Source: a virus (taxonomy: Duplodnaviria; Caudoviricetes). From it: DNA of 58,912 bases. This document shows, one piece after another, positions 12,395-43,428 of this stretch (its first letter is position 1; each line of letters begins with the position of its first letter). The stretch spans positions 1 through 58,912 of IMG/VR virus record IMGVR_UViG_3300038974_000374, one strand, 5' to 3'. The notes beneath the pieces are model-generated. The model saw nothing but the letters and a program-made list of their open reading frames with translations. It was not told the DNA's origin and searched no databases. A program made the translations under genes and the position numbers.

Positions 12395-13025
12395 ATGCCA
12401 TTTATTTATTGTATAACAAATAAAGTTAACAATAAAAAAATATGTCGGCAAAACTGTTTTGACTATTGATCAAAGATGAAGAGATCATTGCTTAGATTAT
12501 ACTAAAGTTAGATGCGAGAAACGTCCTTTATATAATGCAATGACTAAATATGGATTAGAAAACTTTGAAGTTTCTGAACTATGTGAGTGCTCAATAGATG
12601 AATTAAGTGAAAAAGAATCATTTTATATTGATGAGTTAGATACTTATAGTTGCGGATATAATGCAACTAAAGGAGGAGATGGCTCAATATTATATAATCA
12701 TTCTGAGATAATTAAATTATATTTAGATGGATTAACTATGAAAGAAGTTTCTTCTATAATAGGTTGCTGTGAAAATACTGTTTCAGATGTATTAAAATCA
12801 AATAATATTGAATCAAGAAAAAATTATAAAGGAATTACAATTAAACAATTATCATTATCCAGAGAATATATCCGAACATTTGCATCTACTGCTGAAGCAG
12901 GGAAATGGATAGTTGACAATAATTTTGCTAAAACTTATAATGGTGATGTTAGGCAAAAAATTGGAAATGTCGCTAATGGTAATGCTAAAACAGCATATAA
13001 ATTCATATGGGAATGGGAAGATTAA
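12395..13025 (+). CDS. GIY-YIG homing endonuclease (A-run frameshift near 12440; in-frame TGA 12477 at a Trp position)
   Basis: FIYCITNKVNNKK/YVGKT...QR(W)RDH...LYNAMTKYGLENF...GYNATKGG; NUMOD/HTH-like C-terminus. Confidence 0.8.
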
Positions 13026-13182
13026 TACTCCAGTTCCCGCAACAAAGATGAAATAGTCTAGGTCCAGAGGGCTCTAGTAGTACATGAGGAAAGTGACTCT
13101 GGGATTCCCTCCGTGTTTAAAGTGTTGCTGCAAAATGCATCCGCTACTAGTATATCTTTCTTTCTTTTAAAAATTTAACATC

Positions 13183-13584
13183 ATGTATGAAATTGAATTA
13201 ACAACAAATGATAAGTATTATGATGCTTATTATTTTAAGACAAAAAATGAAAACAATCAGACTTTACAATTAGATATAATTGATTCAACGTCTTCTGAGT
13301 TGTCAACTTTTAAAACTTATTATATTTCGTTTAGTATAAATACAAAAAGAAAACATGGTTATCAATATTTAAAACAAACTGGTAAAGATGGAATTAAATC
13401 TTTGATTTGGGCTAAGAAATGTATTAAACATTTTATCAAACATAATTTAAAAAATGGAGATAAAATTGTAATATATGCTGATGATTCCAGAAGATTTAAC
13501 ATTTATGTAAAAGGATTAAAAGAATTAAAATTTGATATTACTAAAGTTAATAATCGTAAAGCTTTAATATATAAACATGTATGA
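13183..13584 (+). CDS. Hypothetical protein
   Basis: 133 aa ORF. Confidence 0.5.
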   Translation: MYEIELTTNDKYYDAYYFKTKNENNQTLQLDIIDSTSSELSTFKTYYISFSINTKRKHGYQYLKQTGKDGIKSLIWAKKCIKHFIKHNLKNGDKIVIYADDSRRFNIYVKGLKELKFDITKVNNRKALIYKHV

Positions 13585-13798
13585 ACGTAACATTTAATGA
13601 ATATTTAGAAGATATAAAATCTCAACTTTGTTGCAATATACCTAATTTAAATGAAATTGATTATATAACTTATGATTTTACCAATGAACAAATTGATGAA
13701 AACTTAGATTATTTTCAAGATTGTTTAAATCGAAATTTATCTGGATATAAAGCGTTATTGTTTTTCAACGAATATTTATCTGAGCAATAAATATACTT

Positions 13799-13871
13799 CG
13801 GAATGTAGTTCAGTAGGTAGAATGCGTGCTTTGGGAGCATGAGGTCGCACGTTCGAATCGTGTCATTCCGA
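13799..13871 (+). tRNA. tRNA-Pro(TGG)
   Basis: Cloverleaf, loop ttTGGga. Confidence 0.9.
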
Positions 13872-14100
13872 CAAATATCACGTTGATATTTATAAATAAA
13901 TTAAGTAATGAAAAAAGTTTTTTTAATTTTGGCAGTTTCTTTTGCCATGTTCGCGTGTACTAAGCCGGTTGATACTAAACCTGCTGTAAATGACTCAATT
14001 TTAATTGATACTGTTGAACTCGAAGTTGCGGAAATTCCTGCCGATTCGGTTGACTCTGTTCTTTAATTGAGTTAAAATCCTCGGGAAACCGAGGTAAATT

Positions 14101-14173
14101 GGCTCTGTAGCTCAGTGGATAGAGCAATGGTTTTCTAAACCATCGGTCATGTGTTCGAGTCACATCAGAGTCA
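14101..14173 (+). tRNA. tRNA-Arg(TCT)
   Basis: Cloverleaf, loop ttTCTaa. Confidence 0.9.
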
Positions 14174-14179
14174 CAAATA

Positions 14180-14253
14180 GGGCCCTTAGCTCAGACGGTT
14201 AGAGCAGCGCCCTCATAAGGCGAAGGTCATCGGTTCAAATCCGGTAGGGCCCA
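14180..14253 (+). tRNA. tRNA(CAT), probably Ile2 (lysidine type), otherwise elongator Met
   Basis: gggccct/agggccc acceptor, loop ctCATaa. Confidence 0.85.
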
Positions 14254-14288
14254 CAAATTAAAAAGTTAAACAGTAAACGATAATGAAT

Positions 14289-14362
14289 GTCCTCATGGTG
14301 AAGTGGTTTAACACGGAAGACTGCAAATCTTCTATTCCTCCGTTCGAATCGGAGTGAGGACT
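14289..14362 (+). tRNA. tRNA-Cys(GCA)
   Basis: Cloverleaf, loop ctGCAaa, U73. Confidence 0.9.
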
Positions 14363-14383
14363 CAAACAATTAAAATTAATAAA

Positions 14384-14839
14384 ATGAATAAATATCACTT
14401 TTTTTGGAAATCTAAACTCTCAAATTGGACTTCTTCTCGATTTATCTACAGAGGATTTAACTACAATTGCGGAGAACAAATGATGATGCATCAAAAAGCT
14501 ATTATGTTTAAAGATTGGGAAACTGCTCTTTTAATTGAACAGTCTACTAATCCTAAAGAAATGAAAGCTCTTGGTCGTAAAGTAAAGAATTTTGATACAA
14601 ATGTTTGGGATGAAATTAAATATGACTTAGTAAAAGCTGGGTTATATTGTAGATTCACTCAGGATAAATCAGCAAAAGCTGAATTATTAGCTCATGCTGG
14701 GCAGATTTTTGTTGAAGCATCTCCTTATGATAGAATTTGGGGAATTGGATATACTGCTCAAGACGCAATGCAAAATATTGACAATTGGGGAGAAAACCTT
14801 TTAGGTAAAATATTAACAGAAATCAGTAATGAAATTTAG
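14384..14839 (+). CDS. NADAR (YbiA-like) family protein
   Basis: LSNW, EQMMMHQKA, KALGRKVKNFD, VEASPYDRIWGIG, GENLLGKIL. Confidence 0.9.
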   Translation: MNKYHFFWKSKLSNWTSSRFIYRGFNYNCGEQMMMHQKAIMFKDWETALLIEQSTNPKEMKALGRKVKNFDTNVWDEIKYDLVKAGLYCRFTQDKSAKAELLAHAGQIFVEASPYDRIWGIGYTAQDAMQNIDNWGENLLGKILTEISNEI

Positions 14840-14900
14840 TTTTATTACTTGATTACAAAGAGTTTCTTTTGAATTTCTTCTCTAAAAAGAAAGAAAGCTA

Positions 14901-14975
14901 GGGGTCTTAGCTCAGCCTGGCTAGAGCAATTGCCTTGCACGCAATAGGTCAAGGGTTCGAATCCCTTAGGCTCCA
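14901..14975 (+). tRNA. tRNA-Ala(TGC)
   Basis: Cloverleaf, loop ctTGCac, G3:U70. Confidence 0.9.
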
Positions 14976-15014
14976 CATTGGTTTATAAAAGTTGTACCAT
15001 AAACAACTTCTTAA

Positions 15015-15091
15015 TGGAAAGTATACCCTCTGCCTGATAAGCAGTAGAAAGGTTAATTGGTTACACGCGGGTTCAATTCCCGCCTTTCCAA
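15015..15091 (+). tRNA. Non-canonical tRNA-Ile(GAT)-like RNA with rearranged D region
   Basis: 7-bp acceptor tggaaag/ctttcca; anticodon arm ctgc-ctGATaa-gcag only 8 nt after the acceptor; D-loop-like taattggtta lies after the anticodon arm; intact T arm. Confidence 0.7.
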
Positions 15092-15213
15092 CTTAAAAAT
15101 TATTGAATTAGGCATTCCTGTCTATGTAGCATTCGGAGATTAGTTCAGTTGGTTCAGAATAGATTTTTGATATTTTTAACATATTCGAATTAAAATTTTT
15201 TAATTATTTTTTG

Positions 15214-15221
15214 TAACTTTG
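15214..15221 (+). promoter_or_regulatory. Bacteroidota-type -7 promoter element TAnnTTTG
   Basis: TAACTTTG 22 nt upstream of the HNH ATG; same motif at 10872, 12061, 24739, 37685, 38224, 45430, 49924. Confidence 0.6.
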
Positions 15222-15242
15222 TAAAGTTTAAAAACTTTAAAT

Positions 15243-15806
15243 ATGGAAAAATACAAAAAAGAAGAATTAGAAAAATTAATTTTAGTAGATTGTCTCACAT
15301 ATGATGCAATTGGAGTTAGATATGGAGTTAGTGGAGCAGCAATTAGAAAAGCTGCTAAAAAATTAGGAATAGAATTACCGACTAGAAGAAAAATAAATTC
15401 TAGCGAAACTTTCAATAAAGGTTATAAATATGTAATTAAATATTGTAAAAATTGTAGTTCTGAAATTCCTTCAGAAAATACATTTTGTAACATTGAATGT
15501 CAAAAAGAATATCAATATACACAATATATTGAAAATTGAAAGTCTGGACAAGTCAATGGTATTTCTGGTAAATCAGATATTTCTAATTATATTAGGCATT
15601 ATTTATTCAATAAACATAAAAATAAATGCGAGTTGTGTGGATGAAATTCAATTAATCCGATTACTCAAAATATTCCCTTAGAAATACATCACATAGATGG
15701 AAATTGTTTAAATAATAAAGAAGAAAACTTACAACTTTTATGTCCAAATTGTCATAGTTTAACTGAAAATTATGGAAATTTGAATAAAAACTCAAAAAGA
15801 TATTAA
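15243..15806 (+). CDS. HNH homing endonuclease (TGA read as Trp at 15537 and 15642)
   Basis: IEN(W)KSG...CELCG(W)NSINP...LEIHHIDGN..NNKEENLQLLCPNCHSLT; 187 aa if TGA=Trp. Confidence 0.85.
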
Positions 15807-15876
15807 GGATAAGGTCCGGGGTTCGAATCCCTGATTTCCGACAATTAGATTAGATTAAATTAAAAAAAAAGAAAAG

Positions 15877-16932
15877 ATGAAAAGATTAATTAGAAATGGC
15901 TCTATACTTAGAGTTGCTGAATTTACTTCTGTTCAGGAAAAATTAGAAGTCGGTATTTATATCGTAAGGGTGTCTGAAGAATTAGGATTTTACTTAGAAC
16001 AAGTGGAACCTTTTTCTCTTCCTAAAAAGATTTATGGCGATTATTCTTTTTTGAAAAGATGGGAATCTGGTATTAAGCGAGCTCAAAACAATACAGGTAT
16101 TTTGTTATCTGGTATCAAGGGTACTGGTAAAACAGTTACTGCTAAGAAATTTTGTAACGAGAGTAATAAACCAGTATTGTTGATAAATTCGCCATATTCT
16201 GGTCCTGCTTTTGAAGCTTTCATTTCTCAACCAATTTTCAAAGATTCAATTATCTTTATTGATGAGTATGAAAAGCTGTACAATGGAAATCTTGATAACG
16301 AAGATGCATTGCTTTCATTACTTGACGGAGTATTCAATACAAAATTGACTTTCTTATTGACTGTTAATAATTTGAAAGCGGTTTCTGACAAATTGAAAAA
16401 CCGGTTGAATCGTATCAAGTATTTCAAAGAATATGTTGCTTATGATTCAGTATTAATCAATGGAATGATTGATGACTTATTGATCAACAAAGATCATAAA
16501 GAATCGATTCAATTGGTTATCCAACAACTTGGATTCATTACTCCGGATATCGTATCGGTTCTCATTGATGAAATGAATGCTAACAATGAACCTGCAACTG
16601 AATCAGTTAAATTCTTAGGTCTTCATGAAGAAAACATTGCCTATGAAGGTGAAGTGGAAGTAGGTGGCGAAACCTTTGACTTCGGTGTAGAATGGGGTAA
16701 TCCTCTCCGAGAAGTTTTGAGATTTGAACCTTCTTATTCAGACAGAGAACATTTCTTACAAACTGTAAAAGAAGACGTGAAATCCGAAATCATGAAAGTT
16801 GTAAGAAATATCAATCTGGCTAAATCTGGATTGAAGTATAAATATATTGATGGAGAGTACGTTATTACTCAACCTAAATTCATATTCAAAATTCGTCCAT
16901 CAAGATCTCGAAATTTCAATTCGAGATTCTAA
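15877..16932 (+). CDS. AAA+ ATPase
   Basis: Walker A GIKGTGKT, Walker B IIFIDEYEK. Confidence 0.85.
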   Translation: MKRLIRNGSILRVAEFTSVQEKLEVGIYIVRVSEELGFYLEQVEPFSLPKKIYGDYSFLKRWESGIKRAQNNTGILLSGIKGTGKTVTAKKFCNESNKPVLLINSPYSGPAFEAFISQPIFKDSIIFIDEYEKLYNGNLDNEDALLSLLDGVFNTKLTFLLTVNNLKAVSDKLKNRLNRIKYFKEYVAYDSVLINGMIDDLLINKDHKESIQLVIQQLGFITPDIVSVLIDEMNANNEPATESVKFLGLHEENIAYEGEVEVGGETFDFGVEWGNPLREVLRFEPSYSDREHFLQTVKEDVKSEIMKVVRNINLAKSGLKYKYIDGEYVITQPKFIFKIRPSRSRNFNSRF

Positions 16933-17210
16933 CCCAATAATCAAAATTTAATTATGACACTGGTGGCAGCCGAAGCGTAAAATGCATCAATGGTTAGGCA
17001 ATGGGAACGATAAAAGAGAGATACCTCGCATCCAGTAGGTTAGATTCAAAGCTCTTATTTTGATTATTAAAGATGTGCCTCGCATAGCCTCTGTTGTTGA
17101 AATATACATTATGTAGCGATGATCCCCAGTTACTAGTTGCAACTAGTTGGTTAAAAGCCAAACTGCGCGTAGATGGGATAGTGAGTAGTCTAATAAATTA
17201 CTCACCTAAG

Positions 17211-17283
17211 GGACTCTTAGCTCAGCTGGTAGAGCGCAGGCCTGAAGAGCCTGGCGTCGTGGGTTCGAATCCCTCAGAGTCCA
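17211..17283 (+). tRNA. tRNA-Phe(GAA)
   Basis: Cloverleaf, loop ctGAAga. Confidence 0.9.
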
Positions 17284-17480
17284 CATGATACTCAAGCTTA
17301 ATTATTTTATAATCTTACGGTAACCAATCCTGAAGAAAGTGTAGCAAATAACTACTATAGAATAATGCTTACTGGAGTTTGCATAATGAGATTTATTACT
17401 ATAGCTCTTATAAATTGAAATATGCGGGGAGTAGAAGGGAACCCTATTCTACATCAAAGAAATAATGGTTCTCATTTCTT

Positions 17481-17555
17481 GCGCTCTTAGCTCAGTTGGC
17501 TTAGAGCACGTGACTTTTAATCACGGGGTCCTGGGTTCGAATCTCAGAGGGCGCA
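17481..17555 (+). tRNA. tRNA-Lys(TTT)
   Basis: Cloverleaf, loop ctTTTaa. Confidence 0.9.
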
Positions 17556-17979
17556 CAATGACAATAAAGTCATTATTAAAAAATGAGGAATTATGAAAAA
17601 AGTATTTTTGTAGATTTTTAATTGAGGGTCTCCATAATAATTTATTACTTAAGTATGTATTACAAAATAGTAGATAAAAAATTAATAAATTATATATTAC
17701 AATATTATGGAAACTTTTAAACAAGAAATCAAAAAATTAGCAGAAGAACAAAGAAATCTTAAAAATTTAAGAAAATCAGTAAATTATCAAGGGTAAGAAC
17801 AATGGAACCATGGCAAGCACAAATGAAACATTATTTTAATGGAAAACAACTTAGAATTATGTATGCCGCATATGGTATAATTAGAGGTAAATCTTATTCT
17901 CAAATTGAAAATCATTATTCTGAAGAAATGCACCCTCTTAAACAATTTGATAATCAAATTCAAAAATTGGTTGAAAAAT

Positions 17980-18273
17980 ATGCAAAAGAAGTTGTATGTT
18001 CTGATAAGTAATGATCTTGACCCTATTTATGAATGTGTTCAAGGTGGTCACGCCGTGGCACAATGGTTATTAGATAATAAAGATTCACAAACTTGGAATA
18101 ATCAATATTTAATTTATTTAATTGCAGATGTAAAGAAATGGGAGTTTAAACTAAATTCAATGGGTATTTCCCATTCTTGCTTTTATGAACCTGATTTAAA
18201 TAATGTACTTACTGCAATTGCAGTTGAAGCTCCAAGTGAAATTTTCAAAAAACTTCAACCAATTAAATTTTAA
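17980..18273 (+). CDS. Peptidyl-tRNA hydrolase 2-like protein
   Basis: KLYVLI..DL...VQGGHAVAQW...FYEPDLNNVLTAIA. Confidence 0.7.
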   Translation: MQKKLYVLISNDLDPIYECVQGGHAVAQWLLDNKDSQTWNNQYLIYLIADVKKWEFKLNSMGISHSCFYEPDLNNVLTAIAVEAPSEIFKKLQPIKF

Positions 18274-18411
18274 TTGGAATATAGGTGTTATCCCAAAAGG
18301 ACAGAATGTATGGCAAAGTAAGGGAAACCTGAAGAGTTAAGGTGAAATACCTTAAGAGCGGAGATGTGAGCTAGCAGAGCCCATACGAATTATCTCTAAC
18401 GCCTATTTTAT

Positions 18412-18484
18412 ACTCTATTAGCTCAGTGGGAGAGCAGCAGATTCTAACTCCGTGTTGTCACAGGTTCGATCCCTGTATAGGGTA
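18412..18484 (+). tRNA. Amber suppressor tRNA (anticodon CTA)
   Basis: actctat/atagggt acceptor, D arm gctc/gagc, anticodon arm gcaga-ttCTAac-tccgt (one mismatch), T arm acagg-ttcgatc-cctgt. Confidence 0.8.
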
Positions 18485-18705
18485 CAAATTATAAAATAAT
18501 ATCCGAAATTGATCGGTAAGACAGGTAAGAGGGGAACCCAATGTCGACTTGTAATTAGGTAATGAGTCCGAATATCCTTTAATAGGTTTAGTCCCGTGGA
18601 TAACATGCGTGTAAATGTCCCTTAATTATTTTATAATTTACTGGAAGTAATCCGGCTGGATGAGGGGATGTTTGTTTATAAATTATAATAAAATAATTTA
18701 ATTCT

Positions 18706-19089
18706 GTGAAAATAAATTGTAAAAACTGCAATAAATTAATTGATAGTAGAAGTATTTCTGGTTTATGTTTAAACTGTAGAAAAGAAAAAGATGCATTAGA
18801 TAAAATAAATCATTGAAAATTAACAGGAGATACCGGTTGTGGAGTTAATACTACATTAAAAAATTGTATAAGAACTTATATTTTAAATAAACAAGATAAT
18901 AAATGTAAAATTTGAGGATTATCTACAAATTGAAATAATAAATCATTAAATTTAATTTTGGATCATATAGATGGAAATGCATCTAATAATCATGAAGAAA
19001 ATTTAAGATTAATTTGTCCTAATTGTGATTCTCAATTAGATACATATAAATCTAAAAACAAACATTCAGCTAGAACAGCTATGAATTAG
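18706..19089 (+). CDS. HNH homing endonuclease (in-frame TGA at 18814, 18913, 18931); absent from the ORF track
   Basis: GTG start; CKNC..CLNC; INH(W)KLTG; KCKI(*)G; TN(W)NNKSLNLILDHIDGNASNNHEENLRLICPNCDSQL. Confidence 0.8.
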
Positions 19090-19177
19090 GAAGTATACTC
19101 AAATTGGTTTAAGAGGATAGTCTTGAAAACTATTAGGTCAGGAAACTGGCGTGTGGGTTCGAGTCCTACTGCTTCCG
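19089..19177 (+). tRNA. tRNA-Ser(TGA)
   Basis: Long variable arm, loop ctTGAaa, G73. Confidence 0.9.
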
Positions 19178-19313
19178 CGCTTAACATCCCGGTATATAAA
19201 TTCTAAACTGCTGACCTATACGAGACAGTAATCCGGAAAGTAAATTATAGGTAAAAGTGTAGATAATGCAGTCCATACCACCTCAGGTGACGAAAAACTA
19301 CACAGAGGTAATT

Positions 19314-19398
19314 GGAGAGTTGGGTGAGTGACTTATACCACGGGTTTGCTAAACCCGCGACCTGAAAGGGTCCATCAGTTCGAATCTGGTACTCTCCG
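19314..19398 (+). tRNA. tRNA-Ser(GCT)
   Basis: Long variable arm, loop ttGCTaa, G73. Confidence 0.9.
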
Positions 19399-19621
19399 CA
19401 AATTAAAAAATATATTAAAATGGAAAATCCCTTAATTATAGGTTGTAATTATCATACTATTTGGCAAAGTAATAAACAAATGAGATTTGTGCTTGCTGAA
19501 ATTTGTAATGATAAAGTTAGATTAACTACAAGAATTACTAAAAAAAGTTTTTGGACTGATAAATCAGATTTAATATTTATTAGAACTAAACATAATATTA
19601 ACAAGGCTAAAAAATTAGGTT

Positions 19622-20146
19622 ATGAAAATATTTAAGCGTTGGTGGTGGAATTCTACAGGCTTGCATCTTCACAGAATAGCCTGGCAAGGAATTAAAAATC
19701 TTTGGAAATGGTTTCCTGTAGTTTGGAATGATAGAGATTATGATCATGCTTATATTATGATTTCGCTTCGATTTAAAATTGAAAATACTGCAAACTATAT
19801 TGAAAAACATAAACGTCATGAAGGTTGGGAACGCGATGTAGAACGAATGAGACTTTGTGTAAGATTATTCGATGCTCTTGAAAAAGATATTTACGAAAGT
19901 GAATATTTTAATTATTACGAAACCGAATCATATGTCGATGAAAAAGGCTACTATCAATCAAAACCTACAAGAGATGACTTAGATGAATATTTCAAAAAGT
20001 ATCCAAATTATTATCGAAGATTATCTGAAAAAGATAAAGAAAAAAGAGCATGGTCAGCTATCATGATTGGAGTCAATCGTCATAATAGAGCATCTAATTT
20101 GTTATTTGAGTTAATTAAACGAAATATTTATAATTGGTGGGATTAA
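19622..20146 (+). CDS. Hypothetical phage protein
   Basis: 174 aa; WFPVVWNDRDYD and terminal WWD typical of a widespread phage family. Confidence 0.6.
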   Translation: MKIFKRWWWNSTGLHLHRIAWQGIKNLWKWFPVVWNDRDYDHAYIMISLRFKIENTANYIEKHKRHEGWERDVERMRLCVRLFDALEKDIYESEYFNYYETESYVDEKGYYQSKPTRDDLDEYFKKYPNYYRRLSEKDKEKRAWSAIMIGVNRHNRASNLLFELIKRNIYNWWD

Positions 20147-20606
20147 TAAAATGAATCGAAAAGACTATAAAAGAATAATCAACAAACGAAAGAAGATTTG
20201 GGATACTTTTGAATGGTGGTATCGACAAGAACCTAATCGTTTATATAAAAACCATTCTATAAAATGTGGATGCGCAATGTGTAGATCAATGACTTATTTT
20301 AAAAGAAAAGAAAGAAGAGATCGTAGACATGAATTTAAAATAGAGTTAAATACAATTAAATTTGATTGGTAATGCAAATTGTTAAAGGTAATTTTGAAGA
20401 GTTGCAATATGATAAGTTGCTTCCTTATTTAAATATTGGTGAGATTTGCATTCGTGATTTGTCAAATAATAACTTATATGGAAGATCTTATAAATATTCT
20501 AATTTTGGAATTTGTAATATTTATGATAGACCATTGGGTATTATTTATGAAGATGAAATTAAAGATTCAAAGCATCACATCCATTTTAAATTTTAAAATA
20601 AAAAAA

Positions 20607-21026: not shown

Positions 21027-21298
21027 AATGAAATTTAATAAAGAAGAACAAGAATTAATTGATAGATTAATGATCTTAGAAGATTCTGAAATAATATGTA
21101 ATCCTTATTCTGGAGAAGAATGTGAATTAGAACCTTTGGCGGTTGCTTTATATGATTACATTAAAGGATGTGAAATGTTTATTAATTCTGGAATTAAGAA
21201 TTTCAATGGAATAGATGTTATAGATAGCATGAGATTAGCATTAGGAATATTTGCTCAATCTTGGCCAAAAGAATATTATTTATTATTAGATTAAATTA

Positions 21299-21483: not shown

Positions 21484-21489
21484 ACAAAC

Positions 21490-21649: not shown

Positions 21650-21720
21650 ACGAGTATCGTCCAATGGTAGGGCTCTGGTCTCCAAAACCAGCTATCTGGG
21701 TTCAAATCCTAGTACTCGTG
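21650..21720 (+). tRNA. tRNA-Trp(CCA)
   Basis: Loop ctCCAaa, G73. Confidence 0.9.
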
Positions 21721-22628
21721 CAAAAATTTAAAATTATGACAGTACAAGAATTATATGAAAAACTCGGAAGAGTTATCGAAAGAGGTAATGGCGATTACGA
21801 AGTTAGAATAATTACTGAAAATAGTGGTTATTTTGGTGCAAGATCTTCAGTTGGAGTAAAGTATGCAAGTTCTGGATTTGATTGGGAAAGCAATCAATTT
21901 AACTTAGTAGCTGATGAAAAAATTATTACAAGTAAATCAGATACAAAAATAGATTCAATTGAATCTAATTCAATACAATTAACAAATCTTAAAAATCCTC
22001 AAAATCCGAAATAATATGGCAGGTATTTTTCCTTATACTGACATTCACGATAATTATAGGATGCATTTGCAGGTTATGGAAGATCTTAAAACAAAAGCTA
22101 AAATTTTAATACTGCCAAATATTTCATTTAATGAAGATGATCTTTCTCAAATAATATTTCACGAAAGTGGTAGAATTGAAGCTTTGTTTCAAAGACATGA
22201 CGCATTTGATGATCCTCAAGAAGAATTTATTGATTTAACTCCTTATTTATTTACTTCAATTGATGCAGTTAAACTTCGAGTAAAACATCAATTAGAGAGA
22301 ATTGATTTATTACGTGGACGTTCAAGAAATTTAGAATCATTAACCAATCTTCAAGATGTTGAAGATTTTAATAATAGATAATGAAAACAACACACTTAGA
22401 AAAACAGGTTTGTCCATATTGTGGACATATTCTTGATGCACATAGTGCTGATGAGGGGTTTCCTGCTCCTGGGGATATCTCAATTTGCTTTTATTGTGGA
22501 GGATTAAATATATTTTCTAATTACTTATCTCTTATTAAATGTAAAGATGAGGATTTAGAATCTCTTGATTCTGAAACATTAGAAAAAATAAAAGAAATTC
22601 AGGAATCAATAAAATTTAAAAACAAATA

Positions 22629-24639: not shown

Positions 24640-25409
24640 AGATATAACTTTTTTTGTAAAGTTATTACCGTAAAGTATTCATGAAGTCTATATTTTTAAG
24701 ATTATTATATTTTATTATAATACATGAAAAAAATTTTATATCTTTGTGTTTTAAACAAATAAATTTTATGAGTAAGAAATACACGGATTTAGAACTAATT
24801 GAAGCAATTAAAACAAGTTTTTCAATTGCAGAAGTATGTAGAAAAGTTGGATTGAAACCAGTTGGTGGAAATTATAAAACTATTCACAATAAAATAGATA
24901 AATTAAAATTAGATACCTCACATTTTACAGGTCAAGGATGAAATATTGGATTAAAATTCCAACCTTCTCCAGCAAGACCTTTAGATGAATATCTTGTAAT
25001 AAATTCAACATATCAATCTTTTAAATTAGCAAAAAGGTTATTTAAAGAAGGGTATAAAGAAAAAGTATGCGAATGTTGTAATAATACAAAATGAATGGAT
25101 AAACCTATTCCTTTAGAGTTACATCATATAACCGGAATTAATAATGATCATAGATTGGAAAATCTACAGATGTTATGCCCAAATTGCCATGCTTTTACAG
25201 ATAATTATAGAGGTAAGAATACAGGTATGAGTGCACAAGAAGAAATTCTTGATGTAGAACAACCCTAATTCGGGGAAGGTGTAAGTTAATAGCTTACAAT
25301 AATCCCGAGCTAAAGCATAGAAATATGTAAATGTGTAGAGACTATATAGGTTGCACCTAAGGAGAAATCTATGGTGAAGAGATAGTCCAAGCAGCAGTAA
25401 TGCTGTATG
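24640..25409 (+). mobile_element. Group I intron in the tRNA-Leu anticodon (U34/A35)
   Basis: Upstream exon ends in U, intron ends in G; core elements aattcggggaa, aatcccgagc, gtagagactata, aagagatagtcc. Confidence 0.88.
24768..25268 (+). CDS. Intron-encoded HNH endonuclease (TGA=Trp at 24939 and 25092)
   Basis: DTSHFTGQG(W)N...CECCNNTK(W)MDKPIPLELHHITGINNDHRLENLQMLCPNCHAFTDNYRGKN; 166 aa. Confidence 0.88.
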
Positions 25410-34410: not shown

Positions 34411-35265
34411 ATGAGTACATTAATGGAAGAAAAATTAAAAGAAGCAATGGATAAGAAACAAGTTGATATTAATAGCTTTATTTGGAAAGGAAATAAAGTA
34501 CTGGACGCTTCAGGTAAATATAAACAGACTGAGAAAAAACTAACTGCAATGTCTGAGTTTGAAATAAATGAGTGTTATGATCACTGTAAAACTATGTTAT
34601 TTAACAAGGATGTACTAAATCCTGGAAGATATGTAGTGTTGGAAGGAATCGCGGATCAGAAAGACAGAGTTGGGGCAGAATTGTTTTTACGCAGTGTAGA
34701 ACAAAAAGGGAGTTTAAGTCGTTTTACTCTTTTAGGATCAATAAATGAATTCTTAAAAAACAACAAAGAAGCACTTAAGAATTATAAACCTGTGGTAGGT
34801 GATGTATTCTCGGGCATACCAAACGAGTTTATGAAAATCCCTCTTAACTTAGTTATTGATGGATGTCTAGATAGACTTGGAACATTTAACAAAAAACACA
34901 TAACAAGAACCTTTATATTAAAACAAGGTATCTGGTTAACACCTGCTGAATCAAAAGAATTGGTTGAAACAAATGAGGACGGTTCAATAAAAGACAGGTT
35001 AGAAGTCATTAGAGAAAGATTAAACATTAAAGAAATTGAGAAATTGTATATCAATTCTAAAGGTTTAAATTATACTCAAATGCGCGCGATGCTGAATATC
35101 AAACCAAATAAAAAATATATGGATTTGACAACTGTTCAATTGGAAACTTTAAGATATCGAATTTTATTCAATCTTGAAGAAACAGTTAAAGAACATATTT
35201 CGGCTTGGGAAAGAAGAATGGAAGAAATCGAAATGGTAGCAAACTATAAAGGTTTCAAAATATAA
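34411..35265 (+). CDS. Conserved hypothetical protein upstream of the polymerase
   Basis: 284 aa ORF, overlaps the PolB start. Confidence 0.6.
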   Translation: MSTLMEEKLKEAMDKKQVDINSFIWKGNKVLDASGKYKQTEKKLTAMSEFEINECYDHCKTMLFNKDVLNPGRYVVLEGIADQKDRVGAELFLRSVEQKGSLSRFTLLGSINEFLKNNKEALKNYKPVVGDVFSGIPNEFMKIPLNLVIDGCLDRLGTFNKKHITRTFILKQGIWLTPAESKELVETNEDGSIKDRLEVIRERLNIKEIEKLYINSKGLNYTQMRAMLNIKPNKKYMDLTTVQLETLRYRILFNLEETVKEHISAWERRMEEIEMVANYKGFKI

Positions 35266-37211
35266 TGTTGAGTGAAGTATATGATATCGAAGTATTATGT
35301 AATTTATTTACATATACAGGGTATTGTAGACAAACTAACACGTATCATCAATTTGTAATTCATAAATCACAAAACGATTATGAATTATTAATGAGTCATT
35401 TATTTAGAGACAAATTGATAATGGTTGGATATAATAATGAAAATTATGATTATCCAATCATTCATCACATGATAAACCATTATAATGAATATAAATATCT
35501 TAGTGGTTTTGAATTGTCTCAAAAGATTTATAAAAAATCTCAAGAAATTATTGAATCTCAATTTAGTGATGTAGCTGATTGGAATAAACATATCTATCAA
35601 GTTGACTTAATGAAAATTATGCACTTTGATTCAACTGCTAAATCTACATCTTTAAAGGATATAGAGTTTTATTTGCGATTGGATTCTATTGAAGATATGC
35701 CATTTTCACATGATTATTGGATTACTACTCAAAAAGAAATTGATAATATTTTATCTTATAATAAACATGATGTTTTTGCAACATGTTGTTTATTAGATGT
35801 GGTTCAAGGCAATACTGAATTAGAATTGTACAAAGGTCAAGACAAAATTCAATTGAGAAAAGATATTCAAGCTGAGTTTGGAATCAAATGTATCAATTAT
35901 AATAATGTTAAAATTGGAGAAGAAATTAACAAAATGGAATATTTGAAAAATAATCCAGGATTACGCGCACAGGATTTGAAAAATGTAGCTCCTGTAATAA
36001 GACCTTTTACATTTGGTCAGTGTATTCCTTCTTATGTTAAATTCAAATCTCAAAAATTTATTGATTTTTATAATTCTATAAAAGATATTCAAGTAAACAT
36101 CAACATTGTTAATAAAGAGGATAAACAATCTTTTACATTAATTCATAATGGTACCAAATATACTATTGCAAGAGGTGGAATACATTCTTGTGAGACTGGA
36201 AGAAAATTAATTCCTGGACCAAATGAATTACTTCGAGATGCTGACGTTGGATCACAATATCCAAATGCGATTCGTAAAAGACGTTTATTCCCAAATCAAT
36301 TAGGAGAAAGTTGGCTAATTGGTTATACAAATAATATCCAACGAAGAATTGATGCTAAGAAAGAAGGAAAAAGAACAGGAAATCCTAAATACACTTCTAT
36401 TGCCGATACTTATAAATTGGCATTAAATGGAGGTGGTTTTGGTAAATCAGGTGAGCCAAAGAATTGGCAATATGATCCTTTCCTTTCTTTAAGTTGTACT
36501 ATTGGTAATCAGTTCGAAATTTTAATGCTTATTGAAGAAATGGAATTAAATAATATACATGTAGTATCAGCTAATACTGATGGTATTGTTTGTTTATTTG
36601 ATAAGTCATTGGATGAAAAATACTATGAAATTTGTCACAATTGGGAAAAAATAGTAGGGAATGAAACTTTAGGTCAATTGGAGTATACAGAATATAAAAT
36701 GCTTATTCAAACTTCAGTAAATGATTATATTGCTGTAAAACCTGATGGAAAAATTAAATTAAAGGGTGATTTCTGTATTGATGTAGAAATGCATAAAAAC
36801 CCTTCAATGCGAATTGTTCCAATTGCCTTACGTGATTATTTTGTTTATGGTAAACCGATTGAAGAAACAATAAAAAATCACAATAATATTTATGATTTTT
36901 GTTTACGAATGAAAACCAATCGAGCATATCAAGCTGAGTATCACTATGTTGATTTAGATAGAAGTGAGTATAAAATTGATCAACTTTCTAAAACATTACG
37001 ATATTATATATCAAATAAAGGCGGAACATTGTATAAAAGAGAAAAAGCAACTGGTAAATTAATTGGAACAAATGTTGGTTTTGTTGCTACAACTTTTAAT
37101 AGATATGTAGAAAAACCAATGGAAGACTATGATGTCAATTATCAATTTTATATAATGGAATGCAACAAAATTATTAATCAAATTGAAACTTCTCAATTAA
37201 CACTATTTTAA
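35265..37211 (+). CDS. Family B DNA polymerase (crAss-like type)
   Basis: Exo YDIE, GYNNENYD, YNKHD; polymerase DVGSQYP, KLALNGGGFGK, SANTDG. Confidence 0.9.
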   Translation: MLSEVYDIEVLCNLFTYTGYCRQTNTYHQFVIHKSQNDYELLMSHLFRDKLIMVGYNNENYDYPIIHHMINHYNEYKYLSGFELSQKIYKKSQEIIESQFSDVADWNKHIYQVDLMKIMHFDSTAKSTSLKDIEFYLRLDSIEDMPFSHDYWITTQKEIDNILSYNKHDVFATCCLLDVVQGNTELELYKGQDKIQLRKDIQAEFGIKCINYNNVKIGEEINKMEYLKNNPGLRAQDLKNVAPVIRPFTFGQCIPSYVKFKSQKFIDFYNSIKDIQVNINIVNKEDKQSFTLIHNGTKYTIARGGIHSCETGRKLIPGPNELLRDADVGSQYPNAIRKRRLFPNQLGESWLIGYTNNIQRRIDAKKEGKRTGNPKYTSIADTYKLALNGGGFGKSGEPKNWQYDPFLSLSCTIGNQFEILMLIEEMELNNIHVVSANTDGIVCLFDKSLDEKYYEICHNWEKIVGNETLGQLEYTEYKMLIQTSVNDYIAVKPDGKIKLKGDFCIDVEMHKNPSMRIVPIALRDYFVYGKPIEETIKNHNNIYDFCLRMKTNRAYQAEYHYVDLDRSEYKIDQLSKTLRYYISNKGGTLYKREKATGKLIGTNVGFVATTFNRYVEKPMEDYDVNYQFYIMECNKIINQIETSQLTLF

Positions 37212-37717
37212 AATGGAAAAGAAAAGATTTAAATTTACAGTCGAATTTGACATGGAAGATTCTCCCGAAACTTCAGGATTTGTTGAAGATGCCATTGAGG
37301 TTATAAAAAGTGGTGAATTCGCTCAATCATTAGAAGAAGATGGATTTACAAACGTTATTTGCGAAATCGTTGAACTATGAAAAAAGGAGATTTAGTAAAT
37401 ATTACAAAAATTGTTGATAATTTTGATGGTAATCATCCAAATGGAATTAACGAAGGATATTCTAAAACTGGAACACTTTATTCAGATTTAGTAGTCGGTG
37501 AAAATATTGTAGTAATTAGTAGTTCACGTCAGTTGACTACTTCTAAAATAATTGAAATAGTTGATGAAAATACGGTAAAAACTAGAAATTCTACTTACCG
37601 AATTGAACTTGTCGTACCAGAAGATTTGTAAAACTTTTTTTGAAGATTTAACTCTTTTTTCTTGTGTATGTCAAATTTTTTTTGTATCTTTGTATTAAGA
37701 AAATGAAAAATGAGAAA

Positions 37718-38009
37718 ATGAAAAATTTTAAGCTAGAAAGACTCCAACAGGGAGAAAGCTTTACTACTTCGGAAAAAGGAAATTCTATGACCCCCAAGAA
37801 TAAAATCTGGTCAAGAACATATACTGTCGCCCGCTCAATGGAATTCTGTTGATGTGGGCGACATTGTTTATTGTAAAGTCCGAGGAAGATTTTACACACA
37901 TTTAGTCATTGCTAAGAATGAATCCAAAGGTTGTTTAATTGGGAACAATCATGGAGGAATTAACGGTTGGACTAAACAGATATACGGTAAAGTAACAGAA
38001 ATACTTTAA
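37718..38009 (+). CDS. S24/S26 peptidase-like protein (apparent C-run frameshift near 37793)
   Basis: GNSMTP/RIKSGQ...VGDIVYCKVRGRFYTHLV...IGNNHGGINGW. Confidence 0.55.
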
Positions 38010-38030
38010 GTATGATTAAATTTTTTATAA

Positions 38031-40419
38031 ATGACACTTGATAGAACTGAAAGGCAACGATTAGGGGTTAGAAAGTGGATTGAAGCAGGTTGTAGAGGAA
38101 CTTTACAATGGTGTACAGGTGTAGGTATTTAAAGAAAAAATGAGTATAATTAAATTAAAACAGTTCTGAATATAAAAATTAATGTATGTCATATATTTTA
38201 GATTTTATGTACAATAAAAATATTACCTTTGTGTAATATAATAAAACATAAAATATGGGAAAAAGACATGAACAAAGAATTTATGATGAATTAGCTACTA
38301 AATATTTAGTAGAAGGATTAAGTTTGATAGAATTATCAAAACAATCAGGTATAGATAGAAGAACATTATCTACTAATTTTAAAAGAATGGGCATTGAAAT
38401 AGTTAATAAACAAAATTTAACTAAATTTGACGAACATATTTTTGATGAAATAGATAATGAAGAAAAAGCATATTGGTTAGGATTTATTTTTGCAGATGGT
38501 TATATATCAAGTTCAAGTAATAATTTTGAATTGTCTCTTGGGTTAAAAGATATAAATCATTTAGAAAAATTTTCTCAATTTATGAAATACAATGGAGCAA
38601 TAAAACAAGATTTTTATAGATGTAGATTTTCATTAAGAAATAAACATTTATGGAATACGTTAAATAACTACGGTTGTACTCCTAAAAAATCATTAACTCT
38701 AAAATTTCCAAATAAAGGTATTTTTAAATCTAAAGATTTAATAAAACACTTTATGAGAGGGTATTTTGATGGGGATGGTTGTATAACATATCAAAAAGAT
38801 ACTAATAGTGTAAATGGTGTTTGTAGTGTATTAGGTACATCTGAATTTTTAGATGAATTTGAAAATATTTTAAATTTTCAAAAATCTATTACAAGATGTA
38901 AAGATAAAAGATTAACTGGAAATACAACTAGTTTATCTTTTAAACGTACTGAATCAATACAATTAATGCATTATTTATATGATAATTCTTCTATTTATTT
39001 AGATAGAAAATTTAAATTATATTCATTTTTTAAAAATGGATGCCGTTCATTAGAGGAATTTAATGAATTATTATTGACCAATATCGGGGAAAGCTGTGAC
39101 GCTAATCCCGAGATAAATGATTAGATTACGAAAGGCTAATCATCATCGTAACGCGTAGGAGATGAATAAATATAATTCTCCCAAGAGTGGTCGACATCCA
39201 GAACGGATGAAAAGGTACGCTGGACTTATACAAAAAAAGAAGTATAAGAAGTTAAGATAAAAAGCTTAACGATAACAAAACGAAAACACGTGCTGCATTA
39301 ACTGCAATTAAAGGATTCTTAACAAAGAATTCTAATAAAAAGATAGTAGTTGTTGTTCCTACTGAACATTTAAAAATTCAGTGGATTCAAGAACTTTCTC
39401 AGTATTTTTTACTGAACTATGTTTCTGTGGAAATTATTAATTCTGCAATTAAAATTGACGATCAAATTGATTTTCTAATTCTGGATGAATGTCATAGAAT
39501 TCCATCTGATACCTTTTATGCTGTCTTTAATAAAAGACAACCAAAAATTGTATTAGGTTTATCGGCGACATTCAGTAGATTAGATGGCAGACACGAATTG
39601 TTAAACCGATTTTGTCCAGTATGTGATGAAATATCTGTAAAAGAAGCTATTGAAAATAAATGGCTTTCTCCTTACAAGGAATATAAGGTAATTATAGAAC
39701 CTGACGATATTGACATATACCGTGAAGCAAATCGACAGTTTAATGAAGCGTTTTCTGTTTTCAATTTTGATTTTACATTGGCGATGAATTGCATGACTAA
39801 CATTATTTACCGTAGAACATATGGTAAAAAGATGGGAATGGATGCAAAAGAATTAGATGCTGTAGTTTTTACTTGGGGTAGAGCATTGCGTGCGCGTAAA
39901 GCATATGTAATGGAACATGTTAAGAAGTTAGAAATAGCTAGAAAAATTATTGAAGCCAGACCGAATGAAAAGATTATAACTTTCTCCGCAACGATTGCAC
40001 AGGCCGAAAAAATTGGAGGAGGTTATGTAGTTCATTCTGGAAAAACTAAGAAGAAAAATAGAATAACTCTGGAAGAGTTTTCTAAATTGAAACTTGGGGT
40101 TATCCATACAGCTAAAAGTTTGGATGAAGGAGCAGATATTAAAGGATTAAGTGTCGCAATTGTTCTTTCCAACACATCTTCTCAAACTCAAAAAACTCAA
40201 CGAATAGGAAGGGTTATTAGATATGAAGAAGGGAAAGAAGCAGAAATATTTACTCTTGTAATAAAGGGTACAATGGAAGAAGGATGGTATAATAATTCGA
40301 CTGCTGGAAAGAATTATATTGAGATTACAGAATCAGAATTAGATGAAATTTTATTAGGAAAAGAGTCTGAAAATATAGAAAAAGTAGGAAAAGAAGTGGG
40401 AATGATGTTTAGGTTTTAA
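38031..40419 (+). CDS. SF2 DEAD/DEAH-like helicase, spliced (exons 38031-38126, 39283-40419)
   Basis: Spliced Walker A WCTGVG|KT; LILDECH; LSAT; LDEGADI; QRIGRVIR; 410 aa. Confidence 0.88.
38127..39282 (+). mobile_element. Group I intron in helicase Walker A
   Basis: U at exon end, terminal G, frame restored on joining; core aatatcggggaaag, aatcccgag, cgtaacgcgta, aggtacgctgga. Confidence 0.85.
38255..39124 (+). CDS. Intron-encoded LAGLIDADG homing endonuclease
   Basis: AYWLGFIFADGYI and HFMRGYFDGDGCI; Trp encoded by TGG. Confidence 0.9.
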   Translation: MGKRHEQRIYDELATKYLVEGLSLIELSKQSGIDRRTLSTNFKRMGIEIVNKQNLTKFDEHIFDEIDNEEKAYWLGFIFADGYISSSSNNFELSLGLKDINHLEKFSQFMKYNGAIKQDFYRCRFSLRNKHLWNTLNNYGCTPKKSLTLKFPNKGIFKSKDLIKHFMRGYFDGDGCITYQKDTNSVNGVCSVLGTSEFLDEFENILNFQKSITRCKDKRLTGNTTSLSFKRTESIQLMHYLYDNSSIYLDRKFKLYSFFKNGCRSLEEFNELLLTNIGESCDANPEIND

Positions 40420-40646
40420 AAACAAAAGAAAAATGATAAATGAAAAAATGCTTGAATACCTAATGATTTCAGAGATATTAAATACAACAGTGAATTTAAG
40501 GACAAGTCCTGTTTATAATTGGTTGTATCCTCGATACTCTGAATTAAGAGATGAGTTTATTAAAGAATACACTCCTACAATACCCAATACTAAAAATCCC
40601 GTAACGGATAATAACGACAAGGAAAGTAGTTAAAAACTACATTTAC

Positions 40647-41261
40647 ATGCAACAATTTGAATTATCTCTGAAAGAAGAGATAAACATCTATATCAATAGT
40701 GGACTTACACCCACGGAATTATTTATCCTAAGATTATTATTCTTGGCTATTGATGGAGATTCTTCTCTTCTTGTAAATTATTTATCAAACATTTCGGATG
40801 GTAAAATAATTTTTAGAAAAGTATTAGAATCACTAAAAGACAAGAAAGTTATTCTGTCTTCATTTAAGATTCCACAAGAAGGAGAATCTTTAAATTTTCA
40901 AAATATACCTTTTAATAAGAATTTTCTTAAAATGTATATTAGAGAATCAAATGAATTAGGAAAAGAGTTATTTGATGCATATCCTCCGTTTATTAATATA
41001 AATGGAAAATTATGCAGTATTAAAAATTTTACCAAAGCAAATCTTTTTACATTTGAAGAGTTTTGCACATATTACGCAAAGGCAATTAAAAATGCAGGAG
41101 TAACTCACGAAAGAGTTATAGAGGCTGTTGAATTTGGAAAAGAACACAACTTACTTAATTATTCAATTACTGAATTTATAGCTTCTCGAAAGTGGCTTGA
41201 AATTGAATATATAAGAGAGAGTGGGAACGTAAACGGGTATAATAACTCAGAGCTTGTATAA
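40647..41261 (+). CDS. Hypothetical replication-module protein
   Basis: 204 aa; overlaps the DnaB start. Confidence 0.55.
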   Translation: MQQFELSLKEEINIYINSGLTPTELFILRLLFLAIDGDSSLLVNYLSNISDGKIIFRKVLESLKDKKVILSSFKIPQEGESLNFQNIPFNKNFLKMYIRESNELGKELFDAYPPFININGKLCSIKNFTKANLFTFEEFCTYYAKAIKNAGVTHERVIEAVEFGKEHNLLNYSITEFIASRKWLEIEYIRESGNVNGYNNSELV

Positions 41262-43428
41262 TGGGTGTAAAGCAATTATTAAAAAATATAGAAGAAGGAA
41301 GAAAAGGTAGAAATATTGGTATTAGTACAGGATTACCTACTATTGATTCGATTATATACGGAATACAAAGAAAGTATTTATATACTATTGGTGCAGATAC
41401 CTCGGGTTAAGGAAATTTAAAAACAATAAGTATGATTGGAGTTTATAAAATTATAAACAAAACAAATGGAAAATGTTATATAGGCTCATCTATAAATATA
41501 AATAATAGGTGAGCAAAACATAAAGCACTTCTTAGACATAATAAACATGAAAATAAGAAACTTCAAAATGCTTGAAATAAGTATGGAGAAGAAAATTTTC
41601 AATTTATTGTGATAAAAGAATGTGATAATGAGATGCTTTTAGAAGAAGAACAAAGTTATTTAGATGAATTAGGAGCGCAAGATTTTATTAATAAAATTAA
41701 TAGAAATTTTGATAAAATTTGCTACAATGTTTCAGCTATAGCTAACACCTGCATAATAACAGAAGAAGTTAGAGCTAAAATAAAAGAGTCATTAAGAATA
41801 AAAAGAGAACAAGGATTATTGTTAAAAAGTAATACTAAAAAATGTTACCAATATAATAGATTTACTGGAGAATTAATAAAAGAATGGGATATTATAAACG
41901 ATGCCAATCGCCATTATAACACTCCTAATAATAAAACTTCTGTAATACAAAGAAACTTGTGAGGAGACACTACTACTGCCTTTGATTCTTTATGAACATT
42001 TGAGCCAATAGAATTTGTGTGAGCAAGAGCTCCTCAAAAAAGAACTACTTTAGTAGTTCAAAATATGGTAGAAAAAACATATGCTTTTTATGATAGTGTT
42101 CCTATCTTCTTAAAAGCTATAGGATTAAATCCTAATTCTAGAATAACAATAACTAAATGTATTGATAAACAAATTCCATTTAAAGGTATTTATAATTGTT
42201 TTAAAATTGAAGCCCCTGTCATTTATGACAGAAAACCATTTGAATTGCTGGGAACTCGCGAAGATATAATAACTAAAACGAATGAAGAAATTCTTAACGT
42301 AAATGTTAAAAATATTATATTATGTGACAATCAGCAGCCAATCTCCTAAGTCATTAGATATGGAGAAGGTTCAACGACTATCCCTGGAGAGGGAGTAGGA
42401 TTCAAGAGAATTCGAAGCGGATGGTAAGATTAAAAATCTTAATGATATAGTCTGGACTTATATGAAAGTATAAGAGTGTGTGCGGAATCGGCACTCACAC
42501 AACATAATCGGGTAAAACCTCTTTTGCAATAGACGTATTTGTGTATAACTTGTTGAAAAATAGACAAGATAAAAATGTATCAATCCTTTATTATTCCTTT
42601 GAGATGTCGGCAGATATTTTATTTGCTAAGTTATTATCTTTACATATCTTTGATACATATGGAGAAGTAGTGACTTATGAAGACATTTTATCCTTAACTA
42701 ATCCAATCTCTGAAGAACATCAAGACCTCGTGAGGAAGTCTGAAGATTGGCTATACGAACTCCAAGAACACCTAACTATTTATGACAAAGCTTTGTCGCC
42801 AAACGGAATATACGCAACTTGTAAAGAGTGGCTAAAACAATTTGGGACATTCGTTGAATTAGAGGAGCATCGGGAGGATTATATAGATAATGACCCTAAT
42901 AGGTATAAAGTGGCAATAATTGACCACGTTGGACTTATTACTGGTCCGGGATCTAAAAAAGAAAAAATAGACTTAACCGCAGATTATTTTATCTATTTTA
43001 GAAATAAGTGTTCCATGACTGGTGTATTTATTCAGCAATTGAATAGAAATGCTAAAAGTATGGAAAGAAAAACTAACGGATATGAACTTATTCAGTTAGA
43101 TGATTTCAAAGACACATCAGGAACTTTGGATGCGTCCGAAGTAGTAATTGCTCTCTTTTATCCATATAGAGAGAAAATAGCAAGGTGCGAGGGCTACCCT
43201 ATCCAAAATGTTCTCAAAAAGCGATTTAGATTAGTTCAAATTTTAAAGAACAGATATGGTATAGCTGATGCTTCAAAAGGTACTTCATTTTTTGGAGAAA
43301 TTGGAATGTATCGTGAGATACCAAAACCAGATGAAATTGGCGATTATGAACCATATTTATCTTTAAAATATATTAAACCAGATGAAAATTATACAGATGA
43401 AAATGACAACAATGTATTTAATTTTTAA
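41261..43428 (+). CDS. DnaB-like replicative helicase, spliced (exons 41261-41407, 42511-43428)
   Basis: GISTGL, spliced Walker A ADTSG|GKTS, SFEM, IIDHVG, QQLNR, DFKDTSG, LKNRYG; 354 aa. Confidence 0.88.
41408..42510 (+). mobile_element. Group I intron in DnaB Walker A
   Basis: U at exon end, terminal G; core gaattgctgggaa, aatcagcagcc, ggttcaacgacta, gatatagtctg. Confidence 0.88.
41432..42349 (+). CDS. Intron-encoded GIY-YIG endonuclease (five in-frame TGA read as Trp)
   Basis: IGVYKIINKTNGKCYIGSS..NR(W)AKH...LQNA(W)NKYGEENF; TGA at 41510, 41573, 41960, 41993, 42020; joins ORF-track fragments 41609 and 42065 into 305 aa. Confidence 0.85.

Follow-up and report, generated by a model that had tools for sequence, protein, structure and literature searches.

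TGA-coded homing endonuclease genes in the early arm of a crAss-like phage, probably producible only late in infection

In-frame TGA codons in five homing endonuclease genes

The DNA considered here is the IMG/VR virus record IMGVR_UViG_3300038974_000374, a contig of 58,912 bases that was analysed at its full length and is referred to below as the window. It represents the early arm (replication and tRNA genes) of a crAss-like phage, the relatives of which have records of approximately 180-210 kb. The window carries five homing endonuclease genes (HEGs) with in-frame TGA codons, nearly all of them at tryptophan positions, in a region whose replication genes have none. Judging from sequence comparisons, these HEGs, four standing free among tRNA genes and one lying in an intron of a DnaB-like helicase gene, are likely to be written in the late code of the phage and to need its suppressor tRNA for their translation. 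They could thus probably be produced only late in infection.

Translation with TGA as tryptophan showed that the five HEG frames contain 13 TGA and 4 TGG codons and not a single TAA or TAG (Table 1). The four TGG codons belong to the GIY-YIG genes (three in HEG 1, one in HEG 5); the three HNH genes have none. The core genes, 83 in number and comprising 14,763 codons, contain 174 TGG and no internal TGA, TAA or TAG, the replication genes being no exception. TGA is instead the terminator of six of the 83 genes, and in two of these six it forms part of an ATGA overlap with the next start. The difference in TGA and TGG usage between HEGs (13 and 4) and core genes (0 and 174) is highly significant (Fisher p=5e-17). 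An initial annotation, made from the letters of the sequence alone, had singled out the same 13 codons, the same six TGA-ended core genes and the lack of TAA and TAG from the HEG frames, as well as the lack of TGG from the HNH genes, and had assigned a further endonuclease gene, of the LAGLIDADG family, to the standard code. All of these observations were reproduced; the LAGLIDADG frame has 2 TGG and no TGA, TAA or TAG.

The annotation had further proposed that the TGA codons fall at sites where tryptophan is typical of the family. Alignments with homologues bear this out for 12 of the 13. In HEG 2 (27 sequences aligned), W99 is invariant and W134 is Trp in at least 90% of the sequences. W37 and W76 are invariant in HEG 3 (21 sequences from a representative search), and both TGA columns of HEG 4 (30 sequences) are at least 90% Trp. 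In HEG 5 (24 sequences), Trp is invariant at W48 and W177 and present in at least 90% of the sequences at W27 and W188; the W197 column has Trp in most sequences and Tyr or Phe in some. The proposal fails for the TGA at 18913 (column 70 of HEG 3), which occupies the place of the second Cys of a CxxC zinc site. This Cys is found in 20 of 20 homologues and is spelled TGT in four of four relatives.

HEG 1 needed a correction of its frame in addition to the TGA reading, which itself held. Its A7 run (12434-12440) is one A longer than that of an uninterrupted homologue in the relative G009, resulting in a frame break. The G009 homologue reads through as MAYIYCITNQINQKKYVGKS..RW.EH; the TGA at 12477 falls in the RW..H motif, and G009 has TGA at the same column. 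The GIY-YIG motif becomes visible only once the two frames are joined, by likeness to G009, and a Pfam search with the truncated frame returned only a sub-threshold match to HTH_23. Two independent metagenome contigs are one letter shorter somewhere across HEG 1.

At the Trp columns of the HEGs, 12 TGA codons stand against no TAG (two-sided binomial p=0.0005), and none of the 363 codons of the HEG frames lying one step away from TAA or TAG has been hit. Random decay of TGG does not fit these figures, since G-to-A changes would yield TAG as often as TGA. At the DNA level, the same Trp columns read TGG in some homologues of the clade and TGA in others. For example, the second TGA column of HEG 4 is TGA in the relatives G002 and G010 and TGG in three other orthologues. 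In these alignments TGG and TGA swap at a single column, as expected of synonymous codons.

The family assignments are of unequal strength. HEG 5 has a GIY-YIG domain (PF01541, 44.2 bits, cut-off 22.6). The three HNH genes scored 19.6, 20.7 and 18.1 bits against Pfam, all under the cut-offs (21.4 or 24.8); PF01844 or PF13392 is present in many of their close homologues, and the HH/DH...N...CPNCH/D motif is kept. The alignments of HEGs 2-5 showed the catalytic motifs to be retained. The open frame of HEG 4 begins at 24681, but comparison with a database protein of 99% identity suggests that the gene probably starts at 24768.

Table 1. Positions of the features discussed in the window and, for the three collinear relatives, of tRNA(TCA) in their own records.
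Feature	Positions	Strand	Details
GIY-YIG HEG 1	12395..13025	+	TGA 12477; 3 TGG; extra A in A7 run 12434-12440
HNH HEG 2	15243..15806	+	TGA 15537, 15642; no TGG
HNH HEG 3	18706..19089	+	TGA 18814, 18913, 18931; no TGG
HNH HEG 4	24768..25268 (open frame from 24681)	+	TGA 24939, 25092; no TGG
GIY-YIG HEG 5, intron-encoded	41432..42349	+	TGA 41510, 41573, 41960, 41993, 42020; 1 TGG
LAGLIDADG endonuclease gene	38255..39124	+	2 TGG, 0 TGA; LAGLIDADG_3, 35.6 bits (Pfam)
DnaB-like helicase exon 1	41261..41407	+	ends within Walker A motif; intron TAA directly after
Group I intron	41408..42510	+	1103 bases; follows U, ends in G
DnaB-like helicase exon 2	42511..43428	+	PHROG 19, DnaB-like helicase
tRNA(CTA), amber suppressor type	18412-18485	+	ARAGORN; Rfam 52.6 bits
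tRNA-Trp(CCA)	21650..21721	+	ordinary; U11-G24 pair in D stem
Core gene ending in TGA	4347..5462	+	PurZ-like; next in-frame TAA/TAG 125 codons on
Core gene ending in TGA	7363-7914		next in-frame TAA/TAG 6 codons on
Core gene ending in TGA	7911-8321		next in-frame TAA/TAG 4 codons on
Core gene ending in TGA	13183-13584		next in-frame TAA/TAG 2 codons on
Core gene ending in TGA	27404-27802		next in-frame TAA/TAG 23 codons on
Core gene ending in TGA	30077-30796		next in-frame TAA/TAG 4 codons on
Relative G002			125 kb, 69% complete; 35 matches to window proteins; tRNA(TCA) not found
Relative G009	c161242-161337 (tRNA(TCA))	-	178 kb, rated 100% complete; 54 shared proteins, mean 60% identity
Relative G010	c30014-30087 (tRNA(TCA))	-	213 kb, rated 100% complete; 50 shared proteins, mean 59% identity

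A TGA-recoded late block in the relatives

Scans with the window proteins identified collinear relatives of the phage (Table 1). Each of the three listed has a forward block rich in TGG and, on the other strand, a reverse block with plentiful in-frame TGA, whose very long frames stay open only when TGA counts as a sense codon. The window aligns collinearly with the forward blocks found in the two complete genomes, G009 and G010. Between 70 and 150 kb of G009, summing the bins by hand gave 222 TGA and 78 TGG codons. Translated with TGA as Trp, the G009 reverse block yielded matches to a Crassvirus capsid family (PF23898, 44.8 bits) and to a muzzle family (PF25731, 113 bits). A scan with the G009 capsid protein led in turn to 24 loci of the clade, those of G009 and G010 among them. 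Under code 4 the open frame increases at all 24 capsid-gene loci; code 15 brings next to no gain. According to our own sums, TGA accounts for approximately 74% of Trp codons in the G009 late block and approximately 54% in the 24 loci, as compared to 12 of 16 in the HEGs. PHROG provided a name for one of eight late proteins in G002 and for none (of one) in a further relative, L008.

No virion or late gene was found by PHROG among the window proteins, over the whole 58.9 kb. The final gene of the window encodes an RNA ligase. In L008, a frame with 4 TGA and 1 TGG begins on the reverse strand about 4 kb past the RNA ligase gene, and in G009 and G010 the last matches to the window fall about 4-5 kb short of the late block. 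A 266-kb genome, G001, was dropped as a relative on account of its 8 weak matches to the window and was used only in the survey of HEG codons.

G009 has no match to the family A DNA polymerase of the window, and the genes on either side are collinear at 58-88% identity. From this arrangement the G009 polymerase looks to have been replaced, as described for crAss-like phages in the available text of PMC12386605.

Position of the suppressor tRNA gene

No tRNA with a TCA anticodon was detected by ARAGORN or Rfam in the window, in agreement with the initial annotation. In both complete relatives, the tRNA(TCA) gene is found on the reverse (late) strand, a long way from the tRNA array of the forward strand; the G010 copy adopts a standard cloverleaf with an A1-U72 pair and G73. 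The gene goes unseen in the window because, in these relatives, it is on the late strand and outside the early array, and because the contig ends a few kb before the point where the late block starts in the relatives. That the suppressor lies on the late strand in two complete genomes is a new element and would fit a timer.

Directly next to the tRNA(TCA) gene on the late strand of G010 lies an HNH gene (0 TGA, 2 TGG), the two together occupying 29439-30087 (loci L112-L113). HEGs may carry tRNA genes, the suppressor included, between phages.

The early array of the window includes a tRNA of the amber suppressor type, tRNA(CTA), which has an A-C mismatch in its anticodon stem. The window shows no in-frame use of TAG, and taking TAG as sense merges no genes. 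A tRNA(CTA) is found at the matching place in the G009 array, where reading TAG as sense adds little open frame. Three tRNA-like genes of the window have unusual arms, and none of them carries TCA: one has an 8-base anticodon loop (8768-8844), another lacks a D arm and has a long extra arm and GAU in the anticodon place (15015-15091), and the third has a shortened anticodon arm (21417-21484).

HEG 5 resides in a group I intron of the helicase gene

The HEG 5 intron splits the helicase gene at the Walker A motif (Table 1). The base preceding it (41407) is T and its last base (42510) is G. The group I core matches RF00028 at 42167-42474 with 83 bits (cut-off 50, E=8.6e-22); a search of 5 kb in one piece with Rfam had missed it. 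The segment 41408-42510 is missing from L004, an IMG/VR contig about 99% identical to window positions 25445-46507, and in that contig nothing interrupts the helicase frame across the Walker A motif. The last 60 or so codons of HEG 5 (42167-42349) are shared with the intron core. Because of this overlap with the 3' end of the gene, the final 30 or so residues of HEG 5 are near-invariant among proteins whose identity otherwise goes down to 44%. From this pattern, the 42167-42349 segment looks like it is under a double constraint, being both protein-coding and part of the intron core.

Mobility among near-identical genomes

Comparison of near-identical genomes indicates, from presence and absence of the genes, that the HEGs are mobile. 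Besides being without the intron and HEG 5, L004 carries an insertion of 1.8 kb within its Sak4-like gene. Two endonuclease genes lie in this insertion, with 3 in-frame TGA codons between them: one is a GIY-YIG gene (2 TGA), and the other is endonuclease-like (1 TGA, 5 TGG). At the site of the window's LAGLIDADG gene, L004 has a GIY-YIG gene free of TGA.

Contigs from four metagenome runs, belonging to four studies (wastewater, aquatic, one coded organism), were compared with the window over positions 12300-25300. The segment corresponding to HEG 2 (15165-15804) is missing in contigs of three runs and present in one, and HEG 4 is present in all four. None of the differences listed falls on a TGA codon; this statement leaves aside another 227 differences and 19 indels. 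One run (X1) contained 98% of the sampled window words, and RNA runs contained 6-10%. All four runs skip positions 23756-24620, with 18-31 other letters in their place; this segment includes a gene for a 198-residue protein (24005-24601) without Pfam or PHROG match. Positions 20396-20600 are skipped by three of the four.

Some further observations concern the LAGLIDADG site. Where window 38126-39041 is set against L004 12681-13621, the LAGLIDADG and GIY-YIG frames share their last 17 or so residues. G009 carries the LAGLIDADG gene at 87.5% identity. Rfam gave no group I intron match near this gene. A megablast search of 34000-42500 against phages returned only one 158-base match, to two crAss-like phages: the segment behind the gene (39122-39279) is 78% identical to unannotated DNA of cr7_1 and cr131_1.

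Proposed decoding of the HEGs and alternative explanations

In the reading that we favour, the host is taken to use the standard code. TGA would end translation early in infection, each HEG giving rise only to a fragment cut at its first TGA, while the intron would still be spliced and the helicase made. At later times a phage tRNA(UCA), encoded on the late strand beyond the end of the contig, would read TGA as Trp, whereupon virion genes and HEGs would both become translatable. For this phage the gating claim rests on the relatives, since its own late block and suppressor were not recovered. We infer that the phage shares the late block and suppressor of its relatives, that the suppressor is produced at late times, and that the delay is of benefit to the phage or to the endonuclease rather than merely tolerated.

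Suppressor-dependent expression at late times was one of two possibilities raised by the initial annotation. It gains indirect support from the recoded late block in every relative in which such a block is visible and from the late-strand location of tRNA(TCA) in two of two complete relatives. The accompanying clause that HEGs have host-type promoters of their own found no support, since the 12-26 kb interval contains 77 sigma-70-like sites, compared to 73.4 +/- 8.3 in shuffled sequences. The other possibility, import of HEGs from code-4 relatives, turned out to be compatible with gating and no true alternative to it, in view of the TGG/TGA interchange and of the turnover of HEGs.

A number of observations weigh against late, suppressor-dependent decoding. 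The 58.9-kb contig contains neither a late gene nor a tRNA(TCA) of this phage. Scans with window proteins led only to relatives or to a 27-kb early-arm contig (PolA scan of viral contigs), metagenome contigs scanned with the RNA ligase included none that was near-identical, and the G009-capsid scan gave none attributable to this phage. G002, which has TGA-rich late genes, has no detectable tRNA(TCA) in the 125 kb (69% complete) available. Several HEGs of G009, G010 and G002 use TGG only, as do the LAGLIDADG gene of the window and the GIY-YIG gene that replaces it in L004. Two of the five genes look damaged, HEG 1 through its extra A and HEG 3 through the change of Cys to TGA, and the HEG 4 copy in one metagenome run (X4) has two single-base deletions. 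Backup stops are no nearer behind the TGA-terminated core genes than behind others (Mann-Whitney p=0.36). Finally, the TGA share of the HEGs falls within the range seen for late blocks in relatives, and drift to a code-4 equilibrium explains it as well as a selected lock does.

The last point leads to the alternative that we take most seriously. The HEGs could be decoded late in just the same way without any purpose being served: genes that are not needed early would drift from TGG to TGA in an A+T-rich genome, and the delay would be a side effect. Consistent with this, the TGA share of the HEGs (12/16) equals that of the G009 late block (222/300), the two codons interchange at the same columns of homologues, and many HEGs of the clade have few TGA codons or none. 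However, the three HNH genes have TGA at all seven of their W-or-TGA codons (numbers too small for a test), and an intron endonuclease family of the Agate phages shows a preference for TGA (p=1.32e-3) according to the available text of 10.1101/2021.08.26.457843. We regard drift as possible, if not what we would expect. Decay of the HEGs to pseudogenes, TGA being simply a nonsense mutation, would account for the extra A in HEG 1, the TGT-to-TGA change at the zinc ligand of HEG 3 and the deletions in the X4 copy of HEG 4. It is very unlikely in the face of the strict preference for TGA over TAG at Trp columns, of the 363 susceptible codons that have all been spared, of the retained catalytic motifs, and of a presence/absence pattern that varies between genomes 99% identical to one another.

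The remaining alternatives differ from late decoding by the phage as to what reads the TGA codons. In bacteria, tRNA-Trp can read UGA as a near-cognate codon, and the abundant phage tRNA-Trp(CCA) encoded in the window might in this way sustain a constant trickle of read-through, making TGA a throttle rather than a timer. The classical Hirsh UGA suppressor owes its activity to an A24 change. The phage tRNA has the ordinary U11-G24 pair instead, and with two to five TGA codons per gene, the yield would be a product of small probabilities; we consider this explanation very unlikely. We hold it to be extremely improbable that code 4, with TGA as Trp, is the code of the host: only the HEGs speak for it, and against it are the 174 TGG and absence of TGA in the core genes, the six genes closed by TGA, two of them in ATGA overlaps, and the early blocks of the relatives, which are likewise TGG-rich. 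The phage could also be a standard-code phage with the HEGs as silent cargo from recoded relatives, translatable only upon co-infection. This would agree with the lack of tRNA(TCA) and of any recoded core gene in the 58.9 kb, with the movement of HEGs between genomes of the clade and with the existence, in the available text of 10.1101/2021.08.26.457843, of relatives sharing more than 90% average nucleotide identity and using different codes. Yet recoding is found in every relative whose late block can be seen (G002, G009, G010, L008 and the 24 capsid loci), and the window stops just short of the point where that block starts in relatives, which makes silent cargo improbable. We give little credence to the related proposition that the phage, having no suppressor of its own, has its HEGs translated only if a suppressor-bearing relative co-infects the same cell. 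Were it true, homing would be switched on at just the time when the cell contains a target genome, and the genetic code would act as a sensor of co-infection.

Other features of the window

All long frames of the window are on the + strand, and its G+C content is about 30%. Its proteins include a family A DNA polymerase, helicases, a primase, a Sak4-like protein, DNA and RNA ligases and a PurZ-like enzyme. The last of these, encoded at 4347-5462, is a relative of adenylosuccinate synthetase (phrog_1211, E=5e-49), and its presence hints at a genome containing 2-aminoadenine. ARAGORN and Rfam together identified about 23 tRNA or tRNA-like genes and one transfer-messenger RNA (tmRNA). The latter is at 6910-7343 (RF00023, 83.4 bits); ARAGORN also found a tmRNA in the relative G010 and in G001, which is unrelated. 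A gene for a PTH2 peptidyl-tRNA hydrolase lies at 20436-21026.

Discussion

That HEGs of an early region can be coded with TGA is a published idea; the pattern itself is real. The present data add an environmental (wastewater, aquatic) crAss-like clade to the phages whose early-region HEGs are in the late code, and extend the trait beyond the intron, to HNH and GIY-YIG genes that stand free in the tRNA array. They also bear on annotation, in that standard gene calling breaks such HEGs and a partial contig can mimic a standard-code phage.

The closest precedent for the intron is in Agate phages, where, in the available text of Borges et al. (10.1101/2021.08.26.457843), a group I intron endonuclease of an early gene uses TGA in preference to TGG (p=1.32e-3), and where in-frame stops are proposed to delay endonuclease production until late in infection. 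As far as that text goes, the two systems have in common an early gene interrupted by a group I intron with a TGA=Trp endonuclease, and Agate phages combine standard-code replication genes with TGA-recoded late genes. The phage studied here belongs to a different clade, crAss-like by the capsid and muzzle of a relative, and comes from wastewater or aquatic sources rather than the gut; it differs further in that the trait extends to four HNH and GIY-YIG genes standing free in the tRNA array, and in that its recoded late block is inferred from relatives. A later version of the Agate study is said to have appeared in Nature Microbiology in 2022.

Genome layout is shared with Lera, a zeta crAss-like phage. 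According to the available text of PMC12386605, its forward block contains genes of nucleic-acid metabolism, most tRNAs and five HEGs, and its reverse block has virion genes that are read with TGA as Trp. Both tRNA-Sup(TCA) and tRNA-Sup(CTA) are reported there, without any indication that amber is used and with the role of the CTA tRNA left unexplained, and the HEG set differs from that of the closest relative. The same pairing of suppressor types, with only TGA in use, is seen in the relative G009. In a comparison with a phage collection, the best PolA match was at 32% identity, and a protein typical of the clade matched unannotated records only.

A delay of this kind has a counterpart in phage T4, where the GIY-YIG endonuclease I-TevI is encoded in an intron of an early gene and the protein is held back until late infection, the intron being spliced early. 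T4 achieves this through late promoters and an RNA structure covering the ribosome site. HEG 5 would resemble I-TevI as an intron-borne GIY-YIG endonuclease of an early gene, with early splicing and a late protein, but the delay would depend on a codon that needs a suppressor, rather than on promoters and RNA structure.

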